Below, piece after piece: positions 8,483 to 45,929 of a stretch of 48,098 nt of DNA. Every line of letters begins with the position of its first letter. Position 1 is the stretch's first letter. This stretch comes from Chiloscyllium plagiosum. Lineage: Eukaryota. The stretch lies in the NCBI RefSeq assembly GCF_004010195.1, contig NC_057719.1, positions 38,825,733-38,873,830 on the forward strand. The letters run 5' to 3'. Position numbers and translations under genes: made by a program. The notes under the pieces were generated by a model. That model saw nothing but the letters and a program-made list of their open reading frames with translations. It ran no database searches and was not told the origin of the DNA.

Positions 8483-8717
8483 TGCAGTGATTGTAAGAAG
8501 GTCAGCCAACTGGACATTATAGAATATGAATTACATGATAGGGGCTGTTAACCTGAACCAATCAGGGAGCCCTGACTGACAGACGAAAAGAGCAGTATCA
8601 GAGATACTGTGATTCTGAGTGCTGACTCTGAAGAGGCAGCACAAATGTCAAGAACTATTCATGTGTAAGTAACTGATGACTTGGTGATGGGATACAGGCC
8701 ATCTGTGGATTACTTAA
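8483..8717 (+). repeat. 5' LTR of Gypsy element
   Basis: Starts TG. Shares CCAATCAGGGAGCCCTG, GCTGACTCTGAAGAGGCAG and TGACTTGGTGA with 13483-13715. Confidence 0.88.
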
Positions 8718-8769: not shown

Positions 8770-10110
8770 ATGCCTTTGTTTGGGAAGCTTGACTCACTCA
8801 AACCTGCCATTAAGGATTGGGCCTATCAGATGGACCAATGGGCAGATGGAGTTTAATTTAAATAAATGTGAGGTGCAGCATTTTGGAAAGACAAATCAGG
8901 GCAGGACTTATACACATAATGGTAAGGTCCTGGGGAGTGTTGCTGAACACTCTGCTTGGAGAGCAGATTCATAGTTCCTTGAAAGTGGTATCATAGGTAA
9001 TCAGGATAGTGAAGATGGTGTTCAGTATGCTTGCTTTTATTGGGCAATGCATCGAGTACAGGAGTTGAGAGGTCATGTTGCAGCTGTACAAGACATTAGT
9101 GAGACCACTTTTGGAATACTGCATGCAATTCTGGTCTCTCTCCTATAGGAAGGATGTTGTGAAACTTGAAAAGATTTACAAGCATGTTGCCAGGGTTGGA
9201 GGGTTTGAGCTATAGGAAGGGGCAGAATAAGCTGGGGCTATTTTCTCTGGAGTGTTGGAGGCTGAGGGATGACCTTATAGAGGTTTATAAAATCATGAGG
9301 GGTATAGTTAGAGTAAATAGGTATGGCCTTTTCACTGAAGTGGGGGAGTCCAAAACTAGAGGGCATAGATTTAAGGTGAGAGGGTAAAGATATAAAAGGA
9401 ACCTGAGGGTGGTGCATGTATTGAATAGGCTGGCAGAGGAAGTGGTGGAGGCTGGTACAATTACAACATTTAAAAGCCATTTGGATAGGTATATGAATAG
9501 GAAGGGTATAGTGGGATATATGCTCAAATGCTACCAAATGGGACTAGATTTATTTAGAATATCTGATTGGCATGGACGAGTTGGACCGAAAGGTCGGTTT
9601 CCATGCTGTATATCTCTGTGACTCTGTGACTGCAGTATGTCAAAAGAATGCATTATTATCCAGGCAAACAACATTGTGGCAGAGGAAAAGCAATGAGTAA
9701 TTCTCCTGACAGCCTGTGGAACCACAGCTTTTTCTGTTATTAGAAATCTAACTTCACCTCAAGCACCAGATACTAAAACCTTCCAAGAATTGATGGACAT
9801 GCTTAAGAAATATTACAATTCCAAGCCTCCACTAATTCTGAGACACTATTGTTATTACCTGGCAATTCGAGAACCAAGGGAATCTGTATTGGGATTTTTG
9901 ACTGGGTTAAGATGACTGTCAGAAACCTGTGACTTTGGTTTATCCCTTAATGAGCTGCTTAGGGACTGTTTGGTATGTGGGATTAATGATGTAAATATTC
10001 CAAAATGCCAACTAGCAGAAGCCCAGCTGAACTTCAAACAAATGCTACAACTGGATTTATCATTGGAAAATGCAGTCAGTGGAGCTATGAGTTGCACGGT
10101 ATTCGATAGA
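8770..10110 (+). pseudogene. Gypsy gag remnant, interrupted by CR1
   Basis: MPLFGKLDS..KDWA|QYVKRM..QANNI..VILLTACG..VIRNLTSPQAPDTKTFQELMDML..RESV..SETCDFG..LLRDCLVCGIND, with stops and frameshifts. Confidence 0.8.
8825..9631 (+). mobile_element. CR1 LINE 3' fragment inserted in gag
   Basis: QMEFNLNKCEVQHFG and KLGLFSLECWRLRDDLIEVYKIMRG. Tail CTCTGTGACTCTGTGACT. Confidence 0.92.
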
Positions 10111-11473
10111 AATGGACACCCTTGCCAGTCTGACTGAGCTTGGGGAACACCATTTCAGTGAAGGTAATTGCATAGCCTCAGTCAGGACATATCCTGAACA
10201 GAGGGACTCTAGGTCAACCCATAGCAAAACCCCAAAACAATGCCAAGCCTCAGCCAAATGGTTAAAAGTTTCTTCAGGATCCTGGCTGGCAAGGATGGTA
10301 TGTGGACTTGAGACACCTAAAGTGTCCTACGAGACCTGAACTGAGTATGATAACTTGTAGGCTGGTATCCAGGAGGGTATCCAAGAGAGTTCATACCCTG
10401 CAAAGTCCGCCTAAATCCGGTTTGGAACAGTTAAATTGCTCAGCAACATCAAAACCAGAACCAATCAAAACAGATATCTGTTCAAATGGTCATTTGGTTC
10501 TAACGGAAGTCAGTACCAGTGTAGCGGTATCAGTGATTGCAGAACCAGTTCTTTAACAAAATTTGCTCTGGACTCTAGCTCTTAAGTTTGTGCAAGGGCT
10601 TGGCCAGGCTGCAAACCCAAAATGCGGGGAGGGGGGTGCCTTTACAAATTAAGAGCGCAACTTCGGATGAAAAGCCGCTGCTCAGTTACCAGTGATTGTT
10701 GTGAAAGGCTCCAACCCAAGTTTGATGGGCAAAACCGATGGAGAGAGATTCACCTAGATTGATACAACATTCCTCAATTTTAAAATGGCTGCCTGAGTGA
10801 AATCCTAATAAAATACCCAGAGGTCTTCCAGGAATGTCTGGAGACTATCAGAGAAGCCAAGGCTACCTTGCATGTTGACCAGGGAGCAATTCCACAATTC
10901 TGCAAGGCCCACTCAGTGCCTTTTGCTGTATGGGCAGTAGTAGCAGCAGAAATCAGAAAGCTGGAAAGTGAAGGAATCATCAAACCAGTCCAATCTGTGG
11001 AATGGGCAGCAGCAGGGGTCCTGATTTTGAAGCCAGATTTTAAACAGATGGTAAATCGACTTTCCCAGGTGGATAAATACCTAATCTCTCAGATAGAGGA
11101 TTCATGCACAAATATTCAGGCGGGGGGGGAGTGCTATCCTTCACAAAGCTGGACGTGATCAATGCATTTAGACGAGGATTCCCATTGGTATGCTACAATT
11201 CAAACCCATAGAGGCTTCTACCAAAGTACTAGACTGTCATCTGGGGTATTGTCAGCCTGGGGTACTTCAGCGGACAATGAACAAAGTTTGCAAGGTCTAC
11301 CTCAATTTGCCATTAACCTAGATGACATTCTAATAATAGGAAAAATGAATAAGCAACTTAGAGAACTTGAATATAGTCCTAAGGCATTTTCCCAAGGTAG
11401 TCATATGCCTAAGAAGGGAAAATTGTGTGTTCCAGGTGCCCTAGAGAACTGCTTGGGCTACAGAGCTGACAAG

Positions 11474-12003
11474 GTGAAAGTGAGGACTGCAGATGCTGGA
11501 GACCAGAATCAAGATTGTGGCGCTGGAAAAGTACAGCAGGTCAGGCAGCATCTGAGGAGTGGGAGAATCGACTTTTTGGGCAAAAGCCTATTCTCAATTT
11601 ATAAATGGCTGCCTGAGTGAAATCCTAATAAAATACCCAGAGGTCTTCCAGGAAGATCTGGGGACTATCAGAGAAGCCAAGGCCAACTTACATGTTGACC
11701 AGGGAGTCTAGCTTTGTGAAGGACAGCACCCCCGCCACTCCTGAATATTTGTGCATGAATCCTCTATCTGAGAGATTAGATACTTATCCACCTGGAAAAA
11801 TCGATTTACCATCTGTTTAAATTTGGCTTCAAAATCGGGACCCCTGATGCTGCCTATTCCACAGATTGGACTGGTTTGATGATTCCTTCACTTTCCAGCT
11901 TTTTGCAACCCTTCCTGATGAGGGGCTTTTGCCCAAAATATTGATTCTTCTGCTCCTCGGATGCTGCCTAACCTGCTGTGCTTTTCCAGCAACACACTCT
12001 CGA
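11474..12003. mobile_element. Inverted pair of PLE termini enclosing two captured copies of nearby DNA
   Basis: Arms ~11476-11590 (-) and 11911-12003 (+). 11591-11706 copies 10771-10886 directly and 11707-11905 copies 10954-11153 inverted. TSD CTACAGAGCTGACAAG (11458-11473) / CTACAGAGTTGACAAG (12004-12019). Confidence 0.85.
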
Positions 12004-12644
12004 CTACAGAGTTGACAAGACTAGTTTATACCAGAGAAAGTAAGGGTGATCAATGCTGCTTCAGTCTCATGTCTGTTGAGGAGCTTAGGTCATTTCTAGG
12101 GATGGTAAATTATTATGGAATGTTCATACATAATCTGGCCTCCATCCCGGCATCTTGGCATCGAATTCTCAAAAAGGGTCAACCCGGGAAATGGTCACAT
12201 AAACAAGCCATAGCTTTCAATGAAATAATCATCCTCTAAGGTATCGGCATACCATGATCCCAAGAAAGATCTAGCATTGACAGGCAATGTCTCCTCATAT
12301 GGCATTGAGGTGGCATTGTTTCACAGATGGCCCAATGGAAAGGAACGGTCAATAGCATACGTATAACAGGACTTGAGCTCTTGCAGAGCGTGAATATGCC
12401 CAGATAGAAAAAGAAGGATTTGCAATCCTATTCGGAGTCAGGAAGTTCCACTAATACCCTTATGGATGAAGATTTGTGATAATAACAGACACAAACCTAC
12501 TTGGCCTGCTTAAACAGGACAAGGCAGTGCCACCCATAGCTTCGGGCCATTTTCGGCAGTGGGCTCTAATATTAAGTGTGTATAATTACAAATTAGAACA
12601 CCAACCGCGAGGCTGAGTAGTGAAATTGGACATGTGGGACATGT

Positions 12645-12960
12645 GGGCGGCACGGTGGCACAGTGGTTAGCACTGCTGCCTCACAGCGCCTCAGGCGACT
12701 GACTGTGTGGAGTTTGCGTATTCTCCCCGTGTCTGCGTGGGTTTCCTCCGGGTGCTCCGGTTTCCTCCCACAGTCCAAAGATGTGCAGGTCAAGTGAATT
12801 GGCCATGCTAAATTGTCCGTAGTGTTAGGTAAGAGGTAAATGTAAGGGTATGGGTGGTTTGCGCTTCGGCGGGTCGGTGTGGACTTGTTGGGCCGAAGGG
12901 CCTGTTTCCACACTCTAATCTAATATCTAACCTAATATAAATATCTAAAAAAAATCTAAA
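12645..12960 (+). mobile_element. Young HE1/V-SINE-type SINE with B box deleted
   Basis: Nearly identical to 39688-40012 but lacks the segment between two CGCC motifs that contains GGTTCAATTCC. (TAATC)-like tail. Confidence 0.93.
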
Positions 12961-13482: not shown

Positions 13483-13715
13483 TATGGTGATTGTAATCAG
13501 GTCAGCCAAGTGAACCTCGTATGAAATAAGTTTCCTGATTGGGGATGTTAATCTGACCCAATCAGGGAGCCCTGGCTGACAGATTAAAAAAAAGATGAGT
13601 GCCAGAGATACTGACATCCTGAGAGCTGACTCTGAAGAGGCAGTATTAAAGCCAAGGGCTATTCATGTGTATATAAAGGGTGACTTGGTGACAGGATACT
13701 AGCAAAGTTATTTCA
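13483..13715 (+). repeat. 3' LTR of Gypsy element
   Basis: Direct repeat of 8483-8717. Ends TTATTTCA followed by TSD GAAAG, and is preceded by AGGAGGACAGG. Confidence 0.9.
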
Positions 13716-15269: not shown

Positions 15270-15848
15270 ATCTATCCCAATCACCTTTCATCCCCTTGCT
15301 GTCCAGGAATCTCCTTCTGCCTTAAATACATTCAGGGACTCTTCATTTCAGGAAGATGGCTCCAACATGGGCGGCACGGTGGCACAGTGGTTAGCACTGC
15401 TGCCTCACAGTTCATCCCCTTGCTGTCCAGGAATCTCCTTCTGCCTTAAATACATTCAGGGACTCTTCATTTCAGGAAGATGGCTCCAACAATTCATGAC
15501 CCTCAGAGTTTTTATTCTTTTGCCTGCTCTCTACTTTAAATGGGTGATCCCTGACTTTTAAACAGTGATCTCTCGTTCTAATTTCTCCCATAAGAGAAAA
15601 CATCTTCTTGAATCTGCTCTGTCAAGATTCATTGGAATATTATGTTTCAATCAAGTTGTAGATTACTCTGCGCTACTCCTATGGATACCATAGTCTTACC
15701 AACATTTCCGAATAAAATAACCCAGCTTACTCCAGGTATTAGTCTGGTAAGTCTTCTCTGACCTGTTTCTGATGCACTCACACCCTTTCCTAAAGGGTGT
15801 GCTGTGTACTCCAGATGGGATCTTTCCAAGCCCTGTATAAATGAAGCA
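15270..15848 (-). mobile_element. Old CR1 LINE 3' fragment
   Basis: Minus-strand ORF RSHLEY...ETGQRRLTRLIPG, plus an RTRDHCLK-like motif. Confidence 0.75.
15368..15410 (+). mobile_element. 43-nt head of young HE1-type SINE between two identical 81-bp direct repeats
   Basis: TGGGCGGCACGGTGGCACAGTGGTTAGCACTGCTGCCTCACAG. 15287-15367 is identical to 15411-15491. Confidence 0.9.
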
Positions 15849-22463: not shown

Positions 22464-22554
22464 TAACTTAATTATTTACTTGCAGACATCCTCCACAGGA
22501 TCGTCCTACTCCTCTGCCAATGTGGACAGGGTAAAACCTGAGGTTGGATGGGAT

Positions 22555-22696
22555 CACAATAAAAGCAAAATACACTGGATGCTGCAGATCTGAAATAAAA
22601 ACAGAAAGTAAAAGAGAAATCCACCATGTCTGAAAATGTCTCTGGAGAGAGAAACAGGGATAACATTTCTAGTTCAAAACCTTTCTTTGGAACTGG
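22555..22696 (-). mobile_element. Old PLE terminal fragment
   Basis: AAAAGCAAAATACACTGGATGCTGCAGATCTGAAATAAAAACAGAAAG...AACATTTCTAG...CCTTTCTTTGGAAC. Hammerhead core decayed. Confidence 0.6.
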
Positions 22697-22729
22697 ATAA
22701 GATTGCGTTATATTCTCACCCAAACCCAT

Positions 22730-22979
22730 CTCCCCTTTGCAGTTAAATTTCTGCTTACAGTCTGGGGCCAACCAGACCTCCCAGTCACCATCCATTTTAA
22801 TTCCCCTTCCCACTTCCTTTCCATCATGACCATCCTTGGTCTCCTCCATTGCCACTCCCCTTTGCAGTTAAATTTCTGCTTACAGTCTGGGGCCAACCAG
22901 ACCTCCCAGTCACCATCCATTTTAATTCCCCTTCCCACTCCCTTTCCAACATGACCATCCTTGGTCTCCTCCATTGCCA
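22730..22979 (+). repeat. 125-bp tandem duplication spanning the PLE 5' junction
   Basis: 22730-22854 and 22855-22979 differ at about two positions. Confidence 0.92.
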
Positions 22980-23357
22980 CAATGAACCAAACCGCAAATT
23001 GGAGGAACAACACCCCATCTTCCACCTGGACAGCCTACAGCCCAGAGGACTCAACATTAAGTTCTCCAATTTCAAATAATTCCCCTTTTCATCCCTTGAC
23101 TCCCTTCCAAGCCCCTCCCCCTCCATGCCACTGCTTCCTTCCACCAACTGGATTAATTCCTCCCATTGACAAAGCAGGTTGTACCATCTACCAGTCTTCA
23201 CCTATCCCCACTTCACCACCCTGCCCCCGCCACCCCCTGTATCTGCGGCTCCACTTTCACCCACCTCCAGTACTGAAGAACGGTTACACCCGAAACATCA
23301 ACTTCTCCACCTCCTGATGCTACCTGGCTTGCTGTGTTTTTCCAGCCTCCTGCCTAT
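22764..23357 (+). mobile_element. Penelope-like element 3' end (GIY-YIG endonuclease C-terminus + terminal repeat with hammerhead core)
   Basis: PVTIHFNSPSHSLSNMTILGLLHCHNEPNRKLEEQHPIFHLDSLQPRGLN* is the typical PLE endonuclease tail. CTGAAGA-ACGG-ttaca-CCC-GAAA-CATC at 23273-23299. Confidence 0.9.
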
Positions 23358-24247
23358 AGTCTCAAGCAATTTAAGTGTGCAATCTAAAAACAAGATGACC
23401 CAGCAGAATAAAACTTCAAAGATAGAGATTTGAGTGACTGGGGAGCATAGCAGGAAAACACATATTTCCTAAGCAGGGTTTGACTGATTTTGGTGGCATC
23501 AGCTCAGACCTTGTCTGCACCTTACTGCAATATCACTTTCCCTGAATACATGAGAAGAGTTTATTGTGCTTTTTGTTATAAGTTAAATTATTTTGTTACT
23601 TATTTCTTATCAGCATTTCATGGAGCTTTACTTTTTCCTAGCATTTAGCTAGATGCTAAAAAAAATGTTAAACATCTATTGAATGTCTGCATCAAAGATA
23701 ACACTGCTAATGGGCAACTTGATGTACGGAGCTAAGATCCTGTCAGTCTATTCTCTTTATCTTAATGATCCTTTGTTATTATTCAAATTTGACTTTGTGT
23801 ATTTAGTCAATTAAATCTATACAGCTAATTAAATTTATAGGGCTAATTATAACCTAATTCAATTTACAGGATTGTGAGCATTGCTAGTTTTAACCCCTGC
23901 TGCTTTTACCCTCCACTGAAGTCAAAGAAGAGTGGTATTAGACAGAGTGTAAAATCAATGATCCACCTGATCTTATTGATGCTGTGGCTGATGAGCCAAG
24001 TTAAAATGATCCCTTACTCAATTCTCAGCCAATCACATAATTAGAACCAAGTACACAAAAGTGATACTGATCCGTATATAGTACACTTCTGAATTCGGTC
24101 TTCATTGCAAAAGAAAACATGAGCAATTAAATGGATTTTTCCTTAAAATAAATATTAAAAATTATATTTACATCATTTGTAATAAATTGCAGCTTCATGT
24201 CTGAATCACTGTACGATATGGCCGCTAATAGTATTCTTAATTTTGGT

Positions 24248-24456
24248 AAAGTTAAAAATCACACAACACCAGGTTATAGTCCAACAGGTTTATTTGGAAG
24301 TACTAGCTTTCGGAGCTCTGCTACTTCATTAACCACCTGATGAAGGAACCGGGCTCTGAAAGCTAGTGCTTCCAAATAAATGTGTTGGACTATAACCTGG
24401 TGTTGTGTGATTTTTAACTTTGTACGCCCCAGTCCAACAACGACACCTCCAAATCA
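24248..24456. mobile_element. Palindromic (inverted-terminus) element of a second PLE family
   Basis: 24248-24330 is the reverse complement of ~24338-24421. TSD TAATTTTGGTAA (24238-24249) / TAATTTTGGCAA (24457-24468). A third partial copy lies at ~24692-24765. Confidence 0.85.
24334..24368 (+). ncRNA. Minimal hammerhead ribozyme motif (AGCU-palindrome type)
   Basis: CAC-CUGAUGA-AGGAACCGGGCUCU-GAAA-G-CUA^GUG. Stem I CAC/GUG; stem II slightly decayed. Confidence 0.6.
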
Positions 24457-24529
24457 TAATTTTGGCAATATTGCCATAAAATAAATGAAACTGTGCAGCT
24501 TCCTTGAGAATCTTTAACTTTAAGACAGA

Positions 24530-24675: not shown

Positions 24676-26335
24676 TAAGAGTTAACAGATTATTGGACTA
24701 TAACCTGGTGTCGTGTGATTTTTAACTTTGTCCATCCCAGTCCAACACTGGCATTTCCTCATCATGACATTTAGCCTGGCTGTTTAACCTATTGTGTGCA
24801 CCTTTGTTTGTTGTTGCTTTCATGGTGTTAGTATGAAATGGATGCATTCCAAAGTACCTTGTAGCCTCAGGCTTTTTTGCAGAAGCAATTCTTGAAACAC
24901 CTCTGCAATCACACTGAAGTCTTAGTGTTTTGCTGGTTTGATCTTCCACAGATCATTGTGGAGTGATATCAGCGATTCCACATTAATTTTTTTCTGATGC
25001 AAACAAATATGCCATATCACATCACTTATCTAGTTTGAATAACTTTGTGTGGGTACTTTTCAAAAATATATTTAAGACATTTATATTAAAGGACCCATTC
25101 CAACATTAACAAAATAAAATTTGAATTCACAACCATACATCACTTGATAAATAGAAAGATAGATTGTCTTGGTGGTTCATGAAGATTTTGTAGCAAAATT
25201 AAAATTAAACACATAATTATATTCAGTTGGCGTCATTTTGCAAGGACATCAGGAGACAGTAACATTGACAGAAAGCGCAGCTGTTAATTTGCAGGTGTAA
25301 ATTATTCCTGGCCTTTGGTAAAAAGATATTTTAAATTTATCATAGTGTGTGACAGAATCATTTGTGCAATTTGTTTAAATGCTTTCATGAAGATTTTCTT
25401 AAAGCTTTGCATATATAATAAAAGAGCTAAAATGTATGATTAACCAAACTAACATATTAAATCTAAATGCAAATCAGAAATAGGAGACATTGAATCATAT
25501 TAGAGAAACAAGTCTTGATGAGTTATATAGATCAGTTCTATATAAGATTAAATGTGAACCATGTTTATGCAGCAGGTACACAAAATAGCATTAGGCACAA
25601 TTAAAATTTGGAAATAGAAATAATATAATATTTTAAAGAATAAACATATTCATTATTGGACATACTTACAATAACTGTAGAGTTGTGAATATCAAATTTA
25701 TGCACTGCAACATGATTGAAATGGGCTTTTTATTTTTCAAGGCAATTTACAATCTTTTATGATATTTAGCGCTATTATTGAAATAAAGTTCAATGTATTG
25801 GTGTTAATTTAACAGGATGTTGAAATACCAGTATTTTAATACAAAAGTCAAGAAAGTTTAAATAGTTGTTTTCATGTGCCATTATTCACACCAAGTTAAA
25901 GGAATATTCTATTTCCTTTTATGCCAAAGTATTGTACCAAATAATATTCATCCTGTTGAGAAGCAAAATGTGTGAGCAAAATGCTACATCCTTCTTAAGA
26001 TGACAACATTTTGACACCAGGTGAAAGAAATTGTCAGAGGTCTGATCAGATGCAGTGAAGAAAGTATATTCTAATAAATTCATGGATAATTTGAGCTTCT
26101 CCTACCCATTTAACCTCCAAAAATAAATAGATTTATAAATTAACCTGTTCTATTCCAAGAGATAGGTCTTTGGCTCATTTTCTGTGAATGCTTCGTCAGA
26201 ACAGTTTTTTTGGGAGCTTGTATTTTACCATTGCCTTTCCCTTTTCAGAGCAGTGTGGAATCGGGTCCGAAATCTACCTCAGCCTGAGTGGAATTTGAAC
26301 CCATGTTGCTGCCATTGATCTGAAATGTATGCTAG

Positions 26336-27356: not shown

Positions 27357-27550
27357 CTTATTTTTTCCCCAGCACCCATGGTGTGTGTGTGCAGGTGTGA
27401 GACACAGTGAAAGACACAAAGTGCACCACTCTTTATTCAATTTCCACCACCAGGAATATAGGAAAACACCCGGGTGGCCAGTGACAAACACTGCCCTTCG
27501 CATCAAAGGGCAGTGCTGTGTGATCAAAACAGTGAAGGGGTGGGTGGGGA

Positions 27551-29785
27551 CTAAATCAAAATAGAGTTGGAGGGAGAAATGATGCACTCCACTCCCTGCG
27601 GCGCTCACCTCTCCCTGAACAACTCCAGGGTGTTGGTCGACGCCGCGTGCTCCTTCTCCAAGGACACCCGGGCTCTAACGTAACCGCGGAAGAGGGGCAG
27701 GCAGTCGGCCCTAACGACCCCCTCCACGGCCCGCTGCCTGGACCTGTTGATGGCCAGTTTGGCCAGGCCCAGGAGCAGACCCACGAGGAGGTCTTCAAAC
27801 CTGCCCTCCCTCCTCCGTACTGAGTGCCCGAAGATCAGGAGCGTGAGACTGAAGTGCAGCCAAAAACAGAGGAGAAGGTTTTTGAGAAAATCAAAAAGGG
27901 AGTGTAAATGCCCACACCCAATATACATGTGGTCCACGGACTCCACAGCGCCACAGAACAAGCAGTTGGGCTGGGAGTCCATGAACCACCGCAATCTGCG
28001 GTTGCAGGGGACTGCTGCGTGCAGCACACTCCACCCCAGATCCCCGAGGGAAAGGGGAAGGACTCCCGCGTGGATGTTGTCGTGTATCCTCCGGCCCAGT
28101 ACCATGTAGGACTGGCCCAGGTGAATCATGTGGGCCAGCACGGAAGCCAGGCGAGAAGACAACACCCTGGTGAAGATTTTGTAGTCCGTACTGAGGAGGG
28201 AGGCCGGACGCCAGTTCTTCAAAGAACGAAGGTCCCCCTTCTTTGGCAGCAGGAGGATGACTGCCCTGCGCCAAGAAAGGGGCAGCTCTCTGGCATTTAG
28301 ACACTCCACCAGGACCTGTGCGTAGTTGCTCCCCAGGACGTCCCAGAACGCCCTGAAGAACTCCACAGTCAGCCCGTCCAGCCCCGGAGTTTTGCCCCTT
28401 GAGAGCCGGTCGAGGGCGCCGGTCAGCTCCTCTAAGGTGACGGGAGCGTCGAGCCTTCCGGCGTCCTCCGGGCCGAGCTTCGGCAGGTCCTCCCACAGAA
28501 CTCTGCGAGCATCCTCGCTGGATGGATCCAGAGAGAACAGAGCCGTGTAATAGTTTCGGACGTGGGCCCTGATCCCCTCCGGACCCGAGATGAGGGACCC
28601 GTCGTCGGCCAGCAGCACAAGGAGCTGCTGACGGGTGCCACGCCTTTTTTCCAGCGAGTAGAAGAAGGGGGAGCTGCGGTCCAGGTCCTGGAGGAGCTGG
28701 ATCCGCGACCTCACCTATGTGCCCCGAGCCCCGACGAGCTGCAGGTCCCGGAGCGCGGCCTTCTTCTCTTCGTACGCCCCGCGCAGGGCTGGGTCCACAT
28801 CGGGCTGACCGAGGCGTGACTCCAGGTCGAGCATCTCCCTCTCCAACACCCCGATCCTGGATTTCCACCTCTTCATCGACCCCCTTGCGTACTCCTGACA
28901 GAAGACGCGGACGTGAGCCTTGCCCACGTCCCACTATAGCCTCAGGGAGGGGAAGCTTCCCCCGCTTCCTTCTCCAGCTGGCCCAGAAATGAAGAAACGA
29001 GTCCTGGAACCCCTCGTCCTCCAGCAGCAGGTTGTTAAAGTGCCAGTACGCGGAGCCGAGCCTGGCGCCGAACAAAGGAGTTCCGCCCACACCAGGTGAT
29101 GGTCCGTGCACGACACCTGCTGCGTGGAGGCCTTCGGAAAACAGGTGGCGTACGCCCGTGAAACGTACAGGTGGTCGATTCTGGACGCTCTGAGCCCAGG
29201 CCTCACGAAGGTGAAGGCGATGGAGTCGGGATGGAGATTCCGCCAGACGTCCACCAGGTCAAAGGACTTGACCAAGTCCTCCAACCTCCTCCCCGACACC
29301 CAACCGGTGTGGGCACCACCATGGTCCCTGCCCTCGAGGACGCAGTTAAAATCTCCCCGGAGGACAACGCACTGGTTCTCGTCGATGGAGGCGAGATGAG
29401 CGGACACTTCTCCGAAGAAGCTCGCTTGCCTCTGCCCGGCCGGTGGGAGCGTAGACGTTCACCAAGTGAAGCACCGTGCCCCCCAGCCGAACCATCAGGT
29501 GAAGCAAACGGCCTGACATGGGCTCCCTGACCCCCAAGATCTCTGGCTGAAAATGCTGGGCCAGCAAGATAGCCACCCCGCCAGATCTGCGGGTGAGGTG
29601 ACTCATGTAGACCCCCCTCCGCCTCGCTACTCGAGGAGCCAGGTGGCTTCATCTCCTGGGGTAGTGTGGGTTTCTTGCAGGAAGCACACCACATACTTCC
29701 CGTCCCGAAGGACCGAGAGGCTCTGGAATCTGCGCTGTGACTCCCTGCTGCCGTTGATGTTGAGGCTGGCTATAGTTGTCTCCAT
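27551..29785 (-). pseudogene. Tx1 ORF2 (APE endonuclease-RT-CCHC), frameshifted, RT core deleted at ~28070
   Basis: METTIASLNING..FLQETH; SGGVAIL; NVYAP; GDFNC; SRIDHLY; TDH; KTPGLDGLTVEFF; LLPKKGDLRSLKNWRPASLLSTDYKI; RIHDNIH joined directly to AGVLP; CLFCGAVESVDHMYIGC. Confidence 0.92.
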
Positions 29786-30859
29786 GTCAGAAGCATTGTG
29801 CAACCACCACCAGTACAGTTAAAAAAACCAAATACATTTACTGGGAGGATGAGGGAGGGGCACAGAAGTCCCTCGCCCTCACCAGAAGTGCCACTTGGGA
29901 GGCTGCATGAGTGCCAGGCCATGTACTCGGCAGTGGTCTTCCGCCAGGATCAACTGGGCCAAATGTTCCGGACTACTGGTCAGTCCGTGGCGGGTGGACT
30001 CTCTGCCGGAGGAGTTACGGGGGTTCAGCTGGAGTACCACCCATCTCCTCTACCTGGGGGTCTACCTCAGCCCGGCTGAGGAATCCTGGCCGGCCCACTG
30101 GCAGGAGCTGGAGGCCAAAGCCTCGGCTCGCCTAGGCCGCTGGTCAGGACTGCTCCCAGTGCTATCTTACAGGAGTCGAGTGCTGGTCATAAACCAGCTG
30201 GTGGCCGCCATGCTGTGGTACCGGCTGGTCACTTTGGTCCCTACTCCTGGCTTTGTCGCTGACATCCAGAGAACGTTGGTCGATTTCTTCTGGGACAAAA
30301 AGATGCACTGGGTCACCGCGCAGGTTCTGAGTCTCCCTATTGAGGAGGGCGGTCAGTCGCTGGTGTGCGTCCGCACCCAGGTCGCGACGTTCCGTCTTCA
30401 GACCTTGTGGCGATACCTTTACGTCGAGCCTCCTCCTAGGTGGTGTGCCCTGGCAACCTATTTTTTCCGCCAGGTGCGTAACCTCAACTACGACACGCAG
30501 CTCCTGTTCGTCAACCGTGTCGGTTTGGAGGTCGCCCTCAAGACGTTGCCTGTCTTTTACCAGGACCTGATCACTGTCTGGAACATGGTCGAATCGCGTC
30601 GCGCCTACCCTCCGGCTGGAGTAGTGGCTGTCGTCAGGGAGCCGTTGCTCAGGAATCTGCACCTCCGTACTCGCGGGTTCGAGTGGCTGTCGGAGGGGAG
30701 GGCCGCGGCGGCGAGGGTGACCAGGGTCGGGGACGTGCTGGGTGCCGGGGGCCTGGGCTGGACGCTGCCGCAGGACATAGCAGGCAGGGCAGCGGTAGAC
30801 GTCCAGTACGTGGCCACCGCCATCCGACGCCTCAAAACGGCGGTGCTCGGACCCGACGT

Positions 30860-30968
30860 ACCAGGATTCCCTTAGTAGCTGCGAGTGAACAGGGAAAAGC
30901 CCAGCGCCGAATCCCCGCTCACCTGACGGGCGAGGGAAATGTGGCGTATAGAAGCGCTTTCTCTGACG
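30860..30968 (+). rRNA. 28S rRNA 5'-region fragment (dispersed, non-functional copy), truncated by assembly gap
   Basis: ACCAGGATTCCCTTAGTAGCTGCGAGTGAACAGGGAAAAGCCCAGCGCCGAATCCCCGC...GGGAAATGTGGCGTA matches the conserved vertebrate 28S segment ACCAGGATTCCCTCAGTAACGGCGAGTGAACAGGGAAGAGCCCAGCGCCGAATCCCCGC...ATGTGGCGTA. Confidence 0.88.
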
Positions 30969-31262
30969 NNNNNNNNNNNNNNNNNNNNNNNNNNNNNNNN
31001 NNNNNNNNNNNNNNNNNNNNNNNNNNNNNNNNNNNNNNNNNNNNNNNNNNNNNNNNNNNNNNNNNNNNNNNNNNNNNNNNNNNNNNNNNNNNNNNNNNNN
31101 NNNNNNNNNNNNNNNNNNNNNNNNNNNNNNNNNNNNNNNNNNNNNNNNNNNNNNNNNNNNNNNNNNNNNNNNNNNNNNNNNNNNNNNNNNNNNNNNNNNN
31201 NNNNNNNNNNNNNNNNNNNNNNNNNNNNNNNNNNNNNNNNNNNNNNNNNNNNNNNNNNNNNN
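30969..31262. other. Assembly gap (N run)
   Basis: Run of N. Confidence 1.
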
Positions 31263-32162
31263 GGCCTGGCCAAACTGGCCATTAACAGGTCCAGGCAGCG
31301 GGCCGTGGAGGGGGTCGTTAGGGCCGACTGCCTGCCCCTCTTCCGCGGTTACATTAGGGCCCGGGTGTCCTTGGAGAAGGAGCACGCGGTGTCGACCAAC
31401 TCCCTGGAGTTGTTCAGGGAGAGATGGGCGCCGCAGGGAGTGGAGTGCATTATTTCTCCCTCCAACTCTATTTTGATTTAGTCCCTACCCTTCCCCTCAC
31501 TGTTTTGATCACACAGCACTGCCCTTTGATGTCACTGGCCACCCGGGTGTTTTCCTATCTTCCTGGTGGTGGAACTTGAATAAAGATTCATGCACTTTGT
31601 GTCTCTCACTGTGTCTCATACCTGCACACACACACACCATGGGTGCTCGAAGAGAAGAGCCTACAGTGCCTCTTGACTGTCCTACCCAAACCCCCAGGGG
31701 CTACAGCAGGGCCTCCTGCTGCCTCGATTCCTCCCCGATCCTGGATTTCCGCCTCTTCGTCGACCCCCTCGCGTACTCCTGACAGAAGACGCGGACGTGA
31801 GCCTTGCCCACGTCCCACCATAGCCTCAGGGAGGGGAAGCTTCCCCGCTTCCTTCTCCAGCCGGCCCAGAAATGACGAAACGAGTCTCGGAACCCCTCGT
31901 CCTCCAGCAGCAGGTTGTTAAAGATCCAGTACGTGGAGCCGAGCCTGGCGTCGAACGGAAAGAGTTCTGCACACACCAGGTGATGGTCCGCGCACGACAC
32001 CTGCCGTGTGGAGGCCCTCGGTAAACAGGAGGCGTACGCCCGCGAAACGTACAGGTGGTCAATTCTGGACGCTCCGACCCCAGGCCTCACAAAGGTGAAG
32101 ACGATGGAGTCGGGATGGAGATTCCGCCAGACGTCCACCAGGTTGAAGGACTTGACCAAGTC

Positions 32163-33194
32163 TTGTTGCAGCCCCAGGGGCTTCTGCATCGGGGTAGGGG
32201 GTGGATGTGGGGTCAGTGGGGCCAGGATCAGGTACTAGTTTGGGGGTCAGGGTTTCCGCGCTGGGGCGACACTGGCACGGCCACAGAGGCATTGTCGTGC
32301 CGGGGCGGGGCAGGTCGTGGGCTAGGTGTTGAGGACAGAGATAGGGTGGTCTCCCTGTGGGCGGGCCTGACGCGCCGCGTCTTCCTGAGCGCCTTCTGGC
32401 CGGTCGGACGCTCACCCCACTCCCCGCCAGAGGCTGGAACATTGGAAGCCTCCGGCTTAGCCCCCGGTGCTGGGGCTTGTGGTGTTGACTTCAGGGGAGG
32501 GGGAGTGGGTGCAGTGGCGCCACCCTCAGCCGTTGGTGTGGGCTGGCCAGCCTTCTGTGTGGGGCAGTCTTTTCTAATGTGCCCCACCTCGCGGCACAGG
32601 TGGCACCGCACGCCATCCAGAAGGCGCAGTAGGCCGCGCCTCGTGGAGGAGGGTGAAAGAGCCCTCGGTGACCTCCTCCAGGGCCAGGCAAATGAACACC
32701 TGGCGTCGGAAGGAGTATACGTGTCGGAGGACGGGGTCCTTAAGACTGAGCAGGAGCGGTTGGACACCCGACTGGATCTCCCCCAGGTTGGTGAGGTGGG
32801 GGAGAAGGTGCTCGCTGGCAATGAAGGGCGGGACGTTGGAGATCACGACCCTCTGGGCCGTAACCTCCAGAGGGTCGATGGGCAGATGTGTCCTGCCCAC
32901 AGTGAGCCCCCTCTCCACGGCCAGGTGGACCGCCTGCTCGGTCCTCAGCAAAAAGACGGCCTTCTCGTACATCCGGGCCGCGGCGACGATGGCCAGTGGG
33001 CCGACCACACTAGCCATGGCCTAGCTGCAGGCCTCGATGGTCATATTGGGGTGGGGATAGGCCTTGACCCCTAGGCGTTTAGTTAGGTGCCTGAAGGGGG
33101 TTGCGGTTGCGGCCGGGGATGGGACAGCCGAGCCTGAGGCAGCGGCTACCCCGGCATAGGTGCGGCTGGGCCCTGCGACCTTTGGGCTCGCCAT
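32163..33194 (-). pseudogene. Tx1 ORF1 (gag-like nucleic-acid-binding protein with CCHC knuckle)
   Basis: MASPKVAG..AIVAAARMYEKAVF..GLTV..PLEVTAQRVVISNVPPFI..RHVYSFRRQVF; CHLCREVGHIRKDC (CX2CX4HX4C). In-frame TAG at 33021-33023 and a frameshift. Confidence 0.88.
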
Positions 33195-33658
33195 ACTCTG
33201 CTGCTGGATGTTGGTAGGCCCCAGGTAGCAGCAGTGGAGGTGTGGCAATGAAGGGCGGGACGTTGGAGATCACGACCCTCTGGGCCGTAACCTCCAGAGG
33301 GTCGACGGGCAAATGTGTCCCGCCCACAGCGAGCCCCCTCTCCACGGCCAGGTGGACCGCCTGCTCGGTCCTCAGGAAAAAGACGGCCTTCTCGTACATC
33401 CGGGCCGCGGCGACGATGGCCAGTGGGCCGACCACACTAGCCATGGCCTTGCTGCAGGCCTCGATGGTCATATAGGGGTGGGGATAGGCCTTGACCCCTA
33501 GGCGTTTAGTTAGGTGCCTGAAGGGGGTTGCGGTTGCGGCCGGGGATGGGACAGCCGAGCCTGAGGCAGCGGCTACCCCGGCATGGGCCCTGCGACCTTT
33601 GGGCTCGCCATACTCTGCTGCTGGATGTTGGTAGGCCCCAGGTAGCAGCAGTGGAGGT
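32815..33658 (-). repeat. ~425-bp tandem duplication of Tx1 5'UTR/ORF1 start
   Basis: 32815-33241 vs 33243-33658, with a few substitutions and a 10-bp indel. Confidence 0.9.
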
Positions 33659-33734
33659 GGGCCTCTGGCAGCAGCAGTGGCGGAAGTCCTCGGGAGGTAC
33701 CCAAGGCGAGTCCCAGGCAGCAATGGTGGAGACC

Positions 33735-33845
33735 TTTTTAGACATTCTCTAATCAATGTGTTCAGAAATGTTATGACACACCTCTGGGGACTTGAACCCA
33801 AGCCTCCTGATTCCGAGGTGGGCCACTGTACCACAAGAGCCCTCA
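33735..33845 (-). mobile_element. Short tRNA-derived SINE
   Basis: Minus strand AGGGCTCTTGTGGTACAGTGG...GGGTTCAAGTCCCCAGAGGTGTG...TTGATTAG; same family as 7972-8085. Confidence 0.7.
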
Positions 33846-33979
33846 GTAATCCTCTTTTTATGCTGTGTCTAAATGTCTATCTAATTACAAATGGTACAGG
33901 ATCAACTATTATAAAGTCTTAGGAAGAAGAGGTACTTGTCTTACGTAGCAAGATATCATTTATATTGTTATACAGTTAA

Positions 33980-42433: not shown

Positions 42434-43370
42434 TACTTCCTTGTCATTGACCCATCAAGTGAGGGAACAGATGCTTTCTAACCATCCTGTTCATCTCCTT
42501 CATAATCTTATGCACCCCCAGCTAGGTCCACTTTCAATGTTCTCTGCTCTGAAGAAAGCAACCCAAGCTTTTCTAGCCTCCCTTCAGAGCTGAAATGCTT
42601 CATCCTAGGCAACATCCCTCCTGTCCAATCACATTCTTCCTATACTATAGTGACCAGAACTGCATGCAGTACTCCAACTGTTGCATAACCAAGTTTTGTG
42701 CAGCTCCAACACAACCTCCCTGCTCTTTCAATCTATGCCACAACTGAAAAAGGCACAGGGCTATATACCTTCTTAATCATCTTATTGACTTGTCCTGCTG
42801 TCTTCAGGGATCTGTGGATTAGCTTTCCAAGGTCCTCTTTTCCTCTGAACTTCCTAGTGCCCTGCTTTTCATTGCATACTCCCTTGTTTTATTATTTATT
42901 CTAAAGTGCATCACCTCACACTTGTCAGGGTTAAGTTCAATCTGCCACCAATCTGTCTAAACCCTCCAGTAACTTAAAACCTTCTTCCTCACTGTCACTA
43001 ACCAACCTTAGTGTCATCCGCAAACGTATTTATCGTCCCCCTACATTTTCTCCTGTATCTTTTATATGCATCATGAACAATAAGAGACCCAACACTGATC
43101 TCTGTAGTACTCCAATAGCCTTCAGTCACATAAGTGGCTTTCTATCAACACCCTCTATCTCTTACCAGCAGGTCAATTTTTGATCTGACTTACCATGATA
43201 CCCTGGATCCCTTTACTTTTATCTTGTTCATTATGCTCATGTGGATGCTTGTCAATGGCTTTGTGAAGTCCATTTAAAGTAGATAACTGCACTACCCTCA
43301 TCTATACACCGGGTCACCACTTCAAAAAATTCAATCAAATTTGTTAGGCATGACCTTCCTCTGACAAAGG

Positions 43371-44721: not shown

Positions 44722-45753
44722 CTGAAAATGTGTTGCTGGAAAAGCGCAGCAGGTCAGGCAGCATCCAAGGAGCAGGAGAATCGACGTTTCTGCATGAGCC
44801 CTTCTTCAGGAATGAGGAAAGTGTGCCAAGCAGGCTAAGATAAAAGGTAGGGAGGAGGGACTTGGGGGAGGGGTGTTGGAAATGCGATAGGTGGAAGGAG
44901 GTTAAGGTGAGGGTGATAAGGTGAGNNNNNNNNNNNNNNNNNNNNNNNNNNNNNNNNNNNNNNNNNNNNNNNNNNNNNNNNNNNNNNNNNNNNNNNNNNN
45001 NNNNNNNNNNNNNNNNNNNNNNNNNNNNNNNNNNNNNNNNNNNNNNNNNNNNNNNNNNNNNNNNNNNNNNNNNNNNNNNNNNNNNNNNNNNNNNNNNNNN
45101 NNNNNNNNNNNNNNNNNNNNNNNNNNNNNNNNNNNNNNNNNNNNNNNNNNNNNNNNNNNNNNNNNNNNNNNNNNNNNNNNNNNNNNNNNNNNNNNNNNNN
45201 NNNNNNNNNNNNNNNNNNNNNNNNNNNNNNNNNNNNNNNNNNNNNNNNNNNNNNNNNNNNNNNNNNNNNNNNNNNNNNNNNNNNNNNNNNNNNNNNNNNN
45301 NNNNNNNNNNNNNNNNNNNNNNNNNNNNNNNNNNNNNNNNNNNNNNNNNNNNNNNNNNNNNNNNNNNNNNNNNNNNNNNNNNNNNNNNNNNNNNNNNNNN
45401 NNNNNNNNNNNNNNNNNNNNNNNNNNNNNNNNNNNNNNNNNNNNNNNNNNNNNNNNNNNNNNNNNNNNNNNNNNNNNNNNNNNNNNNNNNNNNNNNNNNN
45501 NNNNNNNNNNNNNNNNNNNNNNNNNNNNNNNNNNNNNNNNNNNNNNNNNNNNNNNNNNNNNNNNNNNNNNNNNNNNNNNNNNNNNNNNNNNNNNNNNNNN
45601 GGTCGGTTTATAGTAAATGTCCGTGTTGATTCGGTCGCCTGAGATAGAAATGGAGAGGTCTAGGAAGGGGAGGGAGGAGTCTGAGACGGTCCAGATAAAT
45701 TTGAGGTCGGGGTGGAAGGTGTTAGTAAAGTGGATGAACTGTTCAACCTCCTC
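44722..45753 (-). mobile_element. Young 5'-truncated Penelope-like element (RT thumb region + terminus; middle in gap)
   Basis: EVEQFIHFTNTFHPDLKFIWTVSDSSLPFLDLSISISGDRINTDIYYKPT (PLE LPFLD/YxKPT motifs). Perfect 10-bp TSD ATGGACTGAA (44712-44721 / 45754-45763). Hammerhead core CTGAAGA..GAAACGTC at 44779-44813. Confidence 0.92.
44926..45600. other. Assembly gap (N run)
   Basis: Run of N. Confidence 1.
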
Positions 45754-45929
45754 ATGGACTGAATCCTGAGATAGTGAGATTATCCTCAAGAGAGATTTAG
45801 AAGACTGGAATGGTATTCTCGACAGTTTAGAAGACTGTGAGGTGGCATCATTAAGACAGTAAAATTCTTAGTGTTCAAGAGGAAGAATATTTTCTTTGGT
45901 TGTGGATGATTGAGTGGGAGGGGGGTGTA

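Follow-up and report, generated by a model that had tools for sequence, protein, structure and literature searches.

Inverted Penelope-like ends in a decayed Gypsy element enclose filler copied from the adjoining flank

The insertion at 11458–12019 is a single dead Penelope-like retroelement (PLE) end inside an old Gypsy copy, and between its two inverted arms it carries a total of 315 bases of filler that matches stretches of the adjoining Gypsy DNA at ~93% identity. Coordinates refer to the window, the whole stretch of 48,098 nucleotides of Chiloscyllium plagiosum DNA that was analysed, which is repeat-rich animal DNA with N gaps. We consider it probable (roughly 0.6) that the filler was copied from two stretches of the same locus during integration, both cut strands having primed cDNA and each cDNA end having been extended on neighbouring DNA before the two were joined. 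The insertion is without function, being dead sequence within a dead element.

The insertion is framed by a 16 bp TSD, CTACAGAG[C/T]TGACAAG, the left (11458–11473) and right (12004–12019, one mismatch) copies of which, both on the plus strand, are identical at 15 of 16 positions. Next to the left TSD lies a PLE end on the minus strand (11474–11588) with a 35 nt tail (11474–11508); next to the right TSD lies a PLE end on the plus strand (11912–12003) that stops at a short 3′ site and has no tail. The arms are inverted with their 3′ ends outward, the left being 35 nt longer at its outer end than the right, and in the self-comparison 11509–11588 and 11924–12003 are 84% complementary over 80 nt. 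Between them, filler 1 (11591–11706, plus strand) is a direct copy of source 1 (10771–10886, plus strand) and filler 2 (11706–11905, minus strand) is an inverted copy of source 2 (10954–11154, plus strand), both sources being located by self-comparison. BLAST within the window aligns 11593–11706 directly with 10773–10886 (8 mismatches in 114 positions, E = 1e-44) and 11706–11905 in inverted orientation with 11154–10954 (15 substitutions and one 1 nt gap in 201 columns, E = 6e-80). Adding 10771–10772 to the direct alignment gives 9 differences in 116, the approximate figure claimed by an earlier sequence-only reading of this DNA, which had also placed the TSD, the two arms and the two copies where we find them. 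The filler pieces of 116 and 200 bp share base 11706. Their sources are 67 nt apart without overlap and lie 304–687 bp from the insertion site, within the 300–700 bp upstream given in that reading.

At the first of the three new junctions the bases 11589–11590 are ambiguous, with a possible overlap of 0–3 nt between the left arm and source 1; the second junction has an overlap of 1 nt, and the third an overlap of 0 nt with 6 bases of unexplained origin. Overlaps of this size are unlike homology-driven copying. The 6 nt linker (11906–11911) matches neither source 2 nor the sister PLE copies and is likely untemplated. On the bottom strand it reads GGGTTG, which we take to be one base off a phase of the vertebrate telomere repeat; the resemblance is probably chance.

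Judged by its LTRs and coding remnants, the host is a decayed Ty3/Gypsy LTR retrotransposon. The aligning parts of its 5′ LTR (8487–8695, plus strand) and 3′ LTR (13487–13699, plus strand) are 78% identical in the LTR self-comparison, with 43 mismatches and 1 gap in 213 columns. The gag-pol region (9652–12607, plus strand), traced by tblastn with the relatives P0012, P0013 and P0016, is interrupted by the PLE insertion as well as by frameshifts and stops. P0013 and P0016, both of which align to this region, have the domain order PR-RT-RH-IN; tblastn with the PR-RT-RH-IN relatives P0012, P0013 and P0016 gives no match for an integrase in the host, and Pfam gives no useful match for five decayed frames. 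Within source 2, a gap of 8–9 codons in RT lies near 11038, and the reading frame shifts near 11120.

Other repeats lie in and around the host. A LINE fragment, presumably CR1-like, occupies ~8800–9630 and separates the 5′ LTR from gag; a SINE follows the RNase H region at 12644–12940. At 15281–15491 an 87 bp direct duplication (98% identical), far exceeding the usual TSD length, flanks 43 bp that match the beginning of the SINE at 12644 without a difference. A GC-rich (58–65%) block at ~27400–33900 holds an N gap and several partial copies, 91–96% identical, of a LINE that has long RT and endonuclease-like frames and that we assume to be Tx1/L1-like.

The filler differs from its adjoining source at 23 of 314 positions (7.3%). 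Four paralogue contig pieces over the copied region, the longest among those listed and not necessarily the closest, differ at 176 of 981 positions (17.9%; binomial P = 5e-8 against filler and source). Source and copy also share defects. In both, RT lacks residues between KPD and FKQ, as had been claimed for the inverted copy. A HMMER library search with the source frame gave 150 listed homologues of 32–53% identity, too distant to date mutations; of the 120 that span the KPD–FKQ site, 105 are longer there by 8 or 9 residues, 5 are without extra residues, 8 differ by some other length and 2 are unscorable. Two word-indexed protein searches yielded no relatives of the source frame and no shark Gypsy relative with intact RT. 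The frameshift, between the IED and SFTKLD motifs, is common to source and copy. Among the 40 positions listed of 861, five source positions fall inside the copied stretches; at four of them (10810, 10884, 10995 and 11020) the copy has the same letter as the source, where 86–96% of raw family reads differ, and at 10772 the copy retains the family letter and the source does not, as expected if the source mutated later. The divergence of 7.3% against ~18%, together with the shared gap, frameshift and rare letters, places the origin of the filler at this locus, and the earlier view that local DNA, and not a distant Gypsy copy, was captured is supported. A small Gypsy subfamily sharing the RT gap, as an alternative source, is excluded by read depth only.

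Read depth comes from 4 of 23 listed sequencing runs. Raw depth is ~300 at 10950–11049 (the family RT), ~3 over 11750–11849 and 0 at 11742–11745, which means that the composite does not form a multicopy family. One contig from organism B covers 11742–11745 at single-copy depth (44 against 28–44). In run X1 the summed depth over the same bases is 13–30 against 7–9 for the contigs of the locus itself; overlapping contigs and the source suffice to explain this excess, with which another copy is also compatible. One organism-B contig differs from both source and copy of organism A at three of the four bases 11742–11745. Tight clusters of three differences occur in single organism-B contigs there and at 10620–10625; at 11742–11745 the source and the copy of organism A are the same, so either several mutations fell together in B or a conversion took place in A.

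These data bear on the idea, raised in the sequence-only reading, of a TIR-like cassette with a potential for gene shuffling, and on an explanation along this line in which the cargo was taken from another Gypsy copy elsewhere, travelled as a composite mobile element and landed in a relative by chance. Rotifer PLE ends are described as able to carry cargo to new sites (PMC3846280), and the raw depth of the family RT implies hundreds of Gypsy copies, but the gap, the frameshift and the rare letters are shared with the local copy, the depth over the filler falls to ~3 or 0 against ~300 for the family, and the sequence index searched holds no look-alike of the filler. A TIR DNA transposon would have symmetric TIRs at the TSD; here the two retro-ends are unequal, only one of them bears a tail, the left extends 35 nt further out, and TSDs of the same 14–16 bp kind occur at single-arm copies. 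A Pack-type element would be found at other sites away from its source; depth at the centre of the filler is near single-copy, the cargo is dead Gypsy sequence beside its own source, and the reads give no sign of multiplication. The mobile-cassette explanation is largely refuted and we regard it as highly improbable. Neither spread of the composite nor gene shuffling is seen; local capture stands, and the TIR-like, gene-shuffling interpretation is without support at the locus.

An assembly artefact at a repeat-rich site is unlikely, to the point that we give it next to no weight. It could be suspected since the window has N gaps and near-identical tandem duplicates (22730–22980, 98%) and since no listed contig spans the cassette: among the 24 pieces listed, with 266,730 further pieces beyond them, none crosses the right junction or any of the three inner ones. 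Against it stand the clean 16 bp TSD, the 7% divergence between source and copy and the family-type letter kept in the copy, together with two contigs. A contig from organism B covers 11163–11502, crossing the left TSD junction and running ~28–29 nt into the arm, just under a 31 nt bridging rule. A contig from organism A, in a run that may be the assembled sample itself, begins at 11091, and the identical run of source and copy ends at 11120. With a word size of k = 31, which we assume for the organism-A contigs, a 31-mer graph is bound to branch at 11091 when some other sequence agrees with the source as far as 11120. The break at 11091, the organism-B contig entering the left arm and the source–copy divergence agree with the earlier contention that the copy is not an assembly echo. 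The many ‘opposite strand’ joints (for example 11507 to 11996) were considered as fold-back evidence and set aside; they are expected from a complete single arm whose tail maps to the left arm.

The arms belong to a family with five other copies in the window, and the raw depth of this family is ~40,000-fold in one sequencing run. P0151 is 90% identical to 45601–45756 (minus strand, RT fragment), downstream of which, on the same strand and across an N gap, lies an arm of the same family (44723–44813). It is 52% identical to 22882–23049 (plus strand, endonuclease end), which is followed without a gap, on its own strand, by a further arm at ~23270–23346 (80% to the cassette arms over 45 nt). A PLE coding fragment in the window is 84–90% identical to bamboo shark proteins. 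Pfam assigns an RVT_1 domain to P0152; P0151 was read by eye as GIY-YIG/CCHH and has no Pfam match at 0.001. Since the arm family adjoins PLE RT and endonuclease coding fragments in the window, the cassette arms are PLE 3′ ends, and their assignment to an endonuclease-positive Penelope-like element of the Penelope/Poseidon type is supported. Arms and filler are without any ORF.

The layout of the arm family and its CTGAnGA...GAAA pattern are presumably those of the hammerhead ribozyme motif. The pattern is found in the five sister copies in the window and in neither cassette arm. The right arm starts 3 nt before the CTGATGA core (11915) and keeps the core and stem II, the GAAA of the ribozyme core having decayed; the left arm is cut off inside stem II and is without the CUGAUGA core. 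Rfam gives no match for a hammerhead in the window, and the right arm folds no better than its shuffles (z = −0.57). The sister copies terminate at either the long or the short 3′ site. Those at 2944 and 18069, each a single arm, have a TSD of 14 bp, and for the PLE-like copy at 43361 no TSD was found.

A second PLE-like family forms an inverted pair at 24248–24421 (region 24235–24468) that has a ~33 nt tail on the right and a 12–15 bp TSD, encloses no filler and serves as a control within the window; a single arm of this family lies at 24693–24765. At 22545–23346 there is a 3′ fragment of a PLE endonuclease with a 126 bp tandem duplication (98%, 22730–22980) lying inside the PLE sequence; the segment preceding the fragment is, we presume, the apparent end of another PLE family in opposite orientation, and a TSD was looked for around 22545–23346 and none was found. 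Self-comparison reveals no local filler in the seven other PLE-like ends or pairs (2944, 18069, 22545–23346, 24248, 24693, 43361 and 44723), so that filler is present in one of the eight PLE-like insertions examined in the window.

Divergences give a relative order. The LTR pair has diverged by ~21–22%, the filler by 7.3% and the TSD by 1 in 16. Orthologues of organisms A and B differ at 62 of 1570 positions, and the filler is older than the A/B split (P = 0.016); no orthologue-like piece is present among those listed for organism C, which gives no date. By these divergences the Gypsy element inserted and decayed first, the PLE insertion with its filler followed, and organisms A and B split last.

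The arms differ from each other at 13 of 80 positions and the filler from its source at 23 of 314, which could suggest that the arms came first. In such a two-step history a head-to-head PLE fold-back would have inserted, its palindromic centre would later have been broken by hairpin or cruciform cleavage, and host repair would have filled the break with two pieces templated nearby and shortened the left arm. The filler-free inverted pair at 24248–24421, with its tail and TSD, is what the first step would leave, and the hammerhead core, retained in four other short copies, is missing from the left arm. But the excess between the arms sits in CpG columns (7 of 19, against 6 of 61 outside them), and the non-CpG rates are alike (20 of 306 for source and copy, 6 of 61 for the arms; Fisher P = 0.41). 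Moreover, the start of the right arm is only a few bases away from the sister-copy starts, as would be that of an untrimmed cDNA end. We think the two-step history unlikely. The counts fit filler and arms of the same age and a single event, in a weak test of little power (P = 0.41).

A single integration event could have proceeded as follows. A staggered cut of 16 nt, the length of the TSD, would open the target. On the top strand, copying of PLE RNA by the 3′ end would begin at the long, tailed start site; on the bottom strand it would begin ~35 nt further in, at the short site. The layout of the arms is observed, and priming of this kind is suggested by analogy with lizard PLE biochemistry. 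As the end positions show, each cDNA halted at or just before the hammerhead. The left cDNA would then continue at 10771 and the right cDNA at 10954; the local origin of both pieces is observed, and one piece is provisionally assigned to each cDNA. Both cDNAs would approach the cut as they were extended, their template being the bottom strand of the upstream flank. Their ends, which meet in the observed 1 nt overlap, would be connected by end joining and filled in.

Followed in the direction of cDNA synthesis, the left arm runs on into source 1 and the right arm into source 2, each yielding top-strand sequence that heads to the cut. With one piece per cDNA, the left flank would have offered its bottom strand as template to both. 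This strand is the one removed by 5′ resection or displaced by the R-loop of minus-strand transcription, and not the 3′ overhang, on which snap-back repair would draw. Because the template would be the bottom strand and not the 3′ overhang, we tentatively prefer a jump between templates that needs no homology. It would have been made by the PLE RT or by a host repair polymerase, and the acceptor would be bottom-strand DNA from the left flank, single-stranded after displacement or after release by resection. The parse is not unique: a single strand copying both pieces in turn, or later repair of a broken fold-back centre, also fits, and the divergences (P = 0.41) are compatible with either.

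Nascent minus-strand RNA predicts the same template strand as freed bottom-strand DNA. A single event with an RNA template, in which the PLE RT jumped onto the 3′ ends of two fragments of a minus-strand transcript of the locus, accounts for two non-overlapping pieces that both read as bottom-strand copies and are joined without homology, and L1 and R2 are described as making chimeras with other RNAs (PMC11702581; PMC11371274). However, such a template would have to be antisense to the Gypsy element, whose sense strand is plus; a host gene or exon that would give a direction of transcription was not found in the window (0 matches for 300 of 321 candidate frames); and the range of 0.3–0.7 kb is without clear reason unless the RNA was nascent. 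We hold an RNA template to be unlikely, and continue with freed bottom-strand DNA as the favoured template. The earlier suggestion that the PLE RT or repair synthesis jumped onto local DNA or RNA during integration holds for the local capture (7.3%, shared defects), and the divergences fit copying at or close to the time of integration; the enzyme may have been the RT or a host repair polymerase, and the template DNA or RNA.

Much of what is seen here has precedent. PLE insertions of the endonuclease-positive type are described with inverted pLTRs, a one-sided tail of 30–40 bp and a TSD (PMC3846280; PMC8557442), and so are solo pLTRs that have TSDs and enclose captured, unrelated non-coding DNA (PMC3846280); the statement in the sequence-only reading that PLEs form inverted pseudo-LTR structures and mobilise sequence is in print. 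These complex insertions have the same inverted outward 3′ ends, one-sided tail and TSD as the present one. In the accounts given there, however, the inverted copy is usually directly adjacent and captured sequence is not traced to the element's own flank, whereas both pieces of the cargo here come from no more than 0.7 kb away, the first in direct and the second in inverted orientation. The purified PLE protein of Anolis Poseidon is reported to cut and extend both strands, with two RT start sites defining the tail and uncleaved hammerhead RNA as the main template (PMC11167929); the hammerhead core retained in our right arm is in line with such a template. A template jump to flanking DNA is not reported in the available text of that paper, which calls the steps after cDNA synthesis unvalidated.

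Local templated inserts are known from other retroelements. For L1, nearby genomic sequence (<250 bp) copied into the insertion is described in 22 cases among 3,598 insertions, with templates typically within 15 bp of the site, which is ascribed to homology-guided annealing (10.1101/2024.08.27.596794); three cases of templated nearby sequence are given in PMC11702581, where pieces in opposite orientation are explained as two extended ends that were ligated. The present insertion resembles L1 twin priming and templated insertion in that both cut ends would be primed and nearby sequence is copied in. It differs from L1, as described in the main texts of those papers, in a source 304–687 bp away, overlaps of 0–3 nt, copied sequence on both arms, and two primings that use the element's own two start sites. 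As in L1- and R2-type inserts, the filler copies the same locus with the source left intact, and its pieces (116 and 200 bp) are of fitting size; the distance of 304–687 bp exceeds the typical 15 bp. In the ‘snap-back’ and ‘extra template’ 5′ junctions of R2, the 3′ end of the cDNA either primes further synthesis on target DNA close by or moves over to a different RNA, after which the junction is sealed (PMC11371274); as set out there, R2 makes a single cDNA in engineered cells, at an rDNA site that is fixed, without an inverted second arm, unlike the present insertion. PMC13174262 concerns RNA chimeras. No paper on PLE fillers copied from a flank hundreds of bases away was found in the literature searched, which is poor in subscription journals. 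Publications already cover inverted ends and their tails, cargo enclosed by PLE ends and, for L1 and R2, inserts templated nearby; new here are two filler pieces, both plausibly taken from one strand.

The insertion is clearly a fossil of a known kind of copying slip, and its significance is modest. How Penelope-like elements complete integration is still described as undefined (PMC8557442; PMC11167929), and the two-piece filler is a rare record of the fate of both cDNA ends that yields a strand rule separating DNA from RNA templates. Given the ~40,000-fold raw depth of the arm family, even rare capture would give many countable cases. A general form of the favoured mechanism, rather doubtful and advanced tentatively, is that Penelope integration truly proceeds from two ends. 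Once a cDNA arrives at the 5′ end of the RNA, at the hammerhead, it would be able to switch, with no need for homology, to any single strand freed no further than ~1 kb from the cut. If this were true, filler would always be copied towards the cut, whichever arm takes it; PLE-rich genomes such as those of sharks would carry thousands of short local duplications recording the geometry of resection or R-loops; and Penelope-like elements would offer a route to local exon duplication distinct from that of L1.
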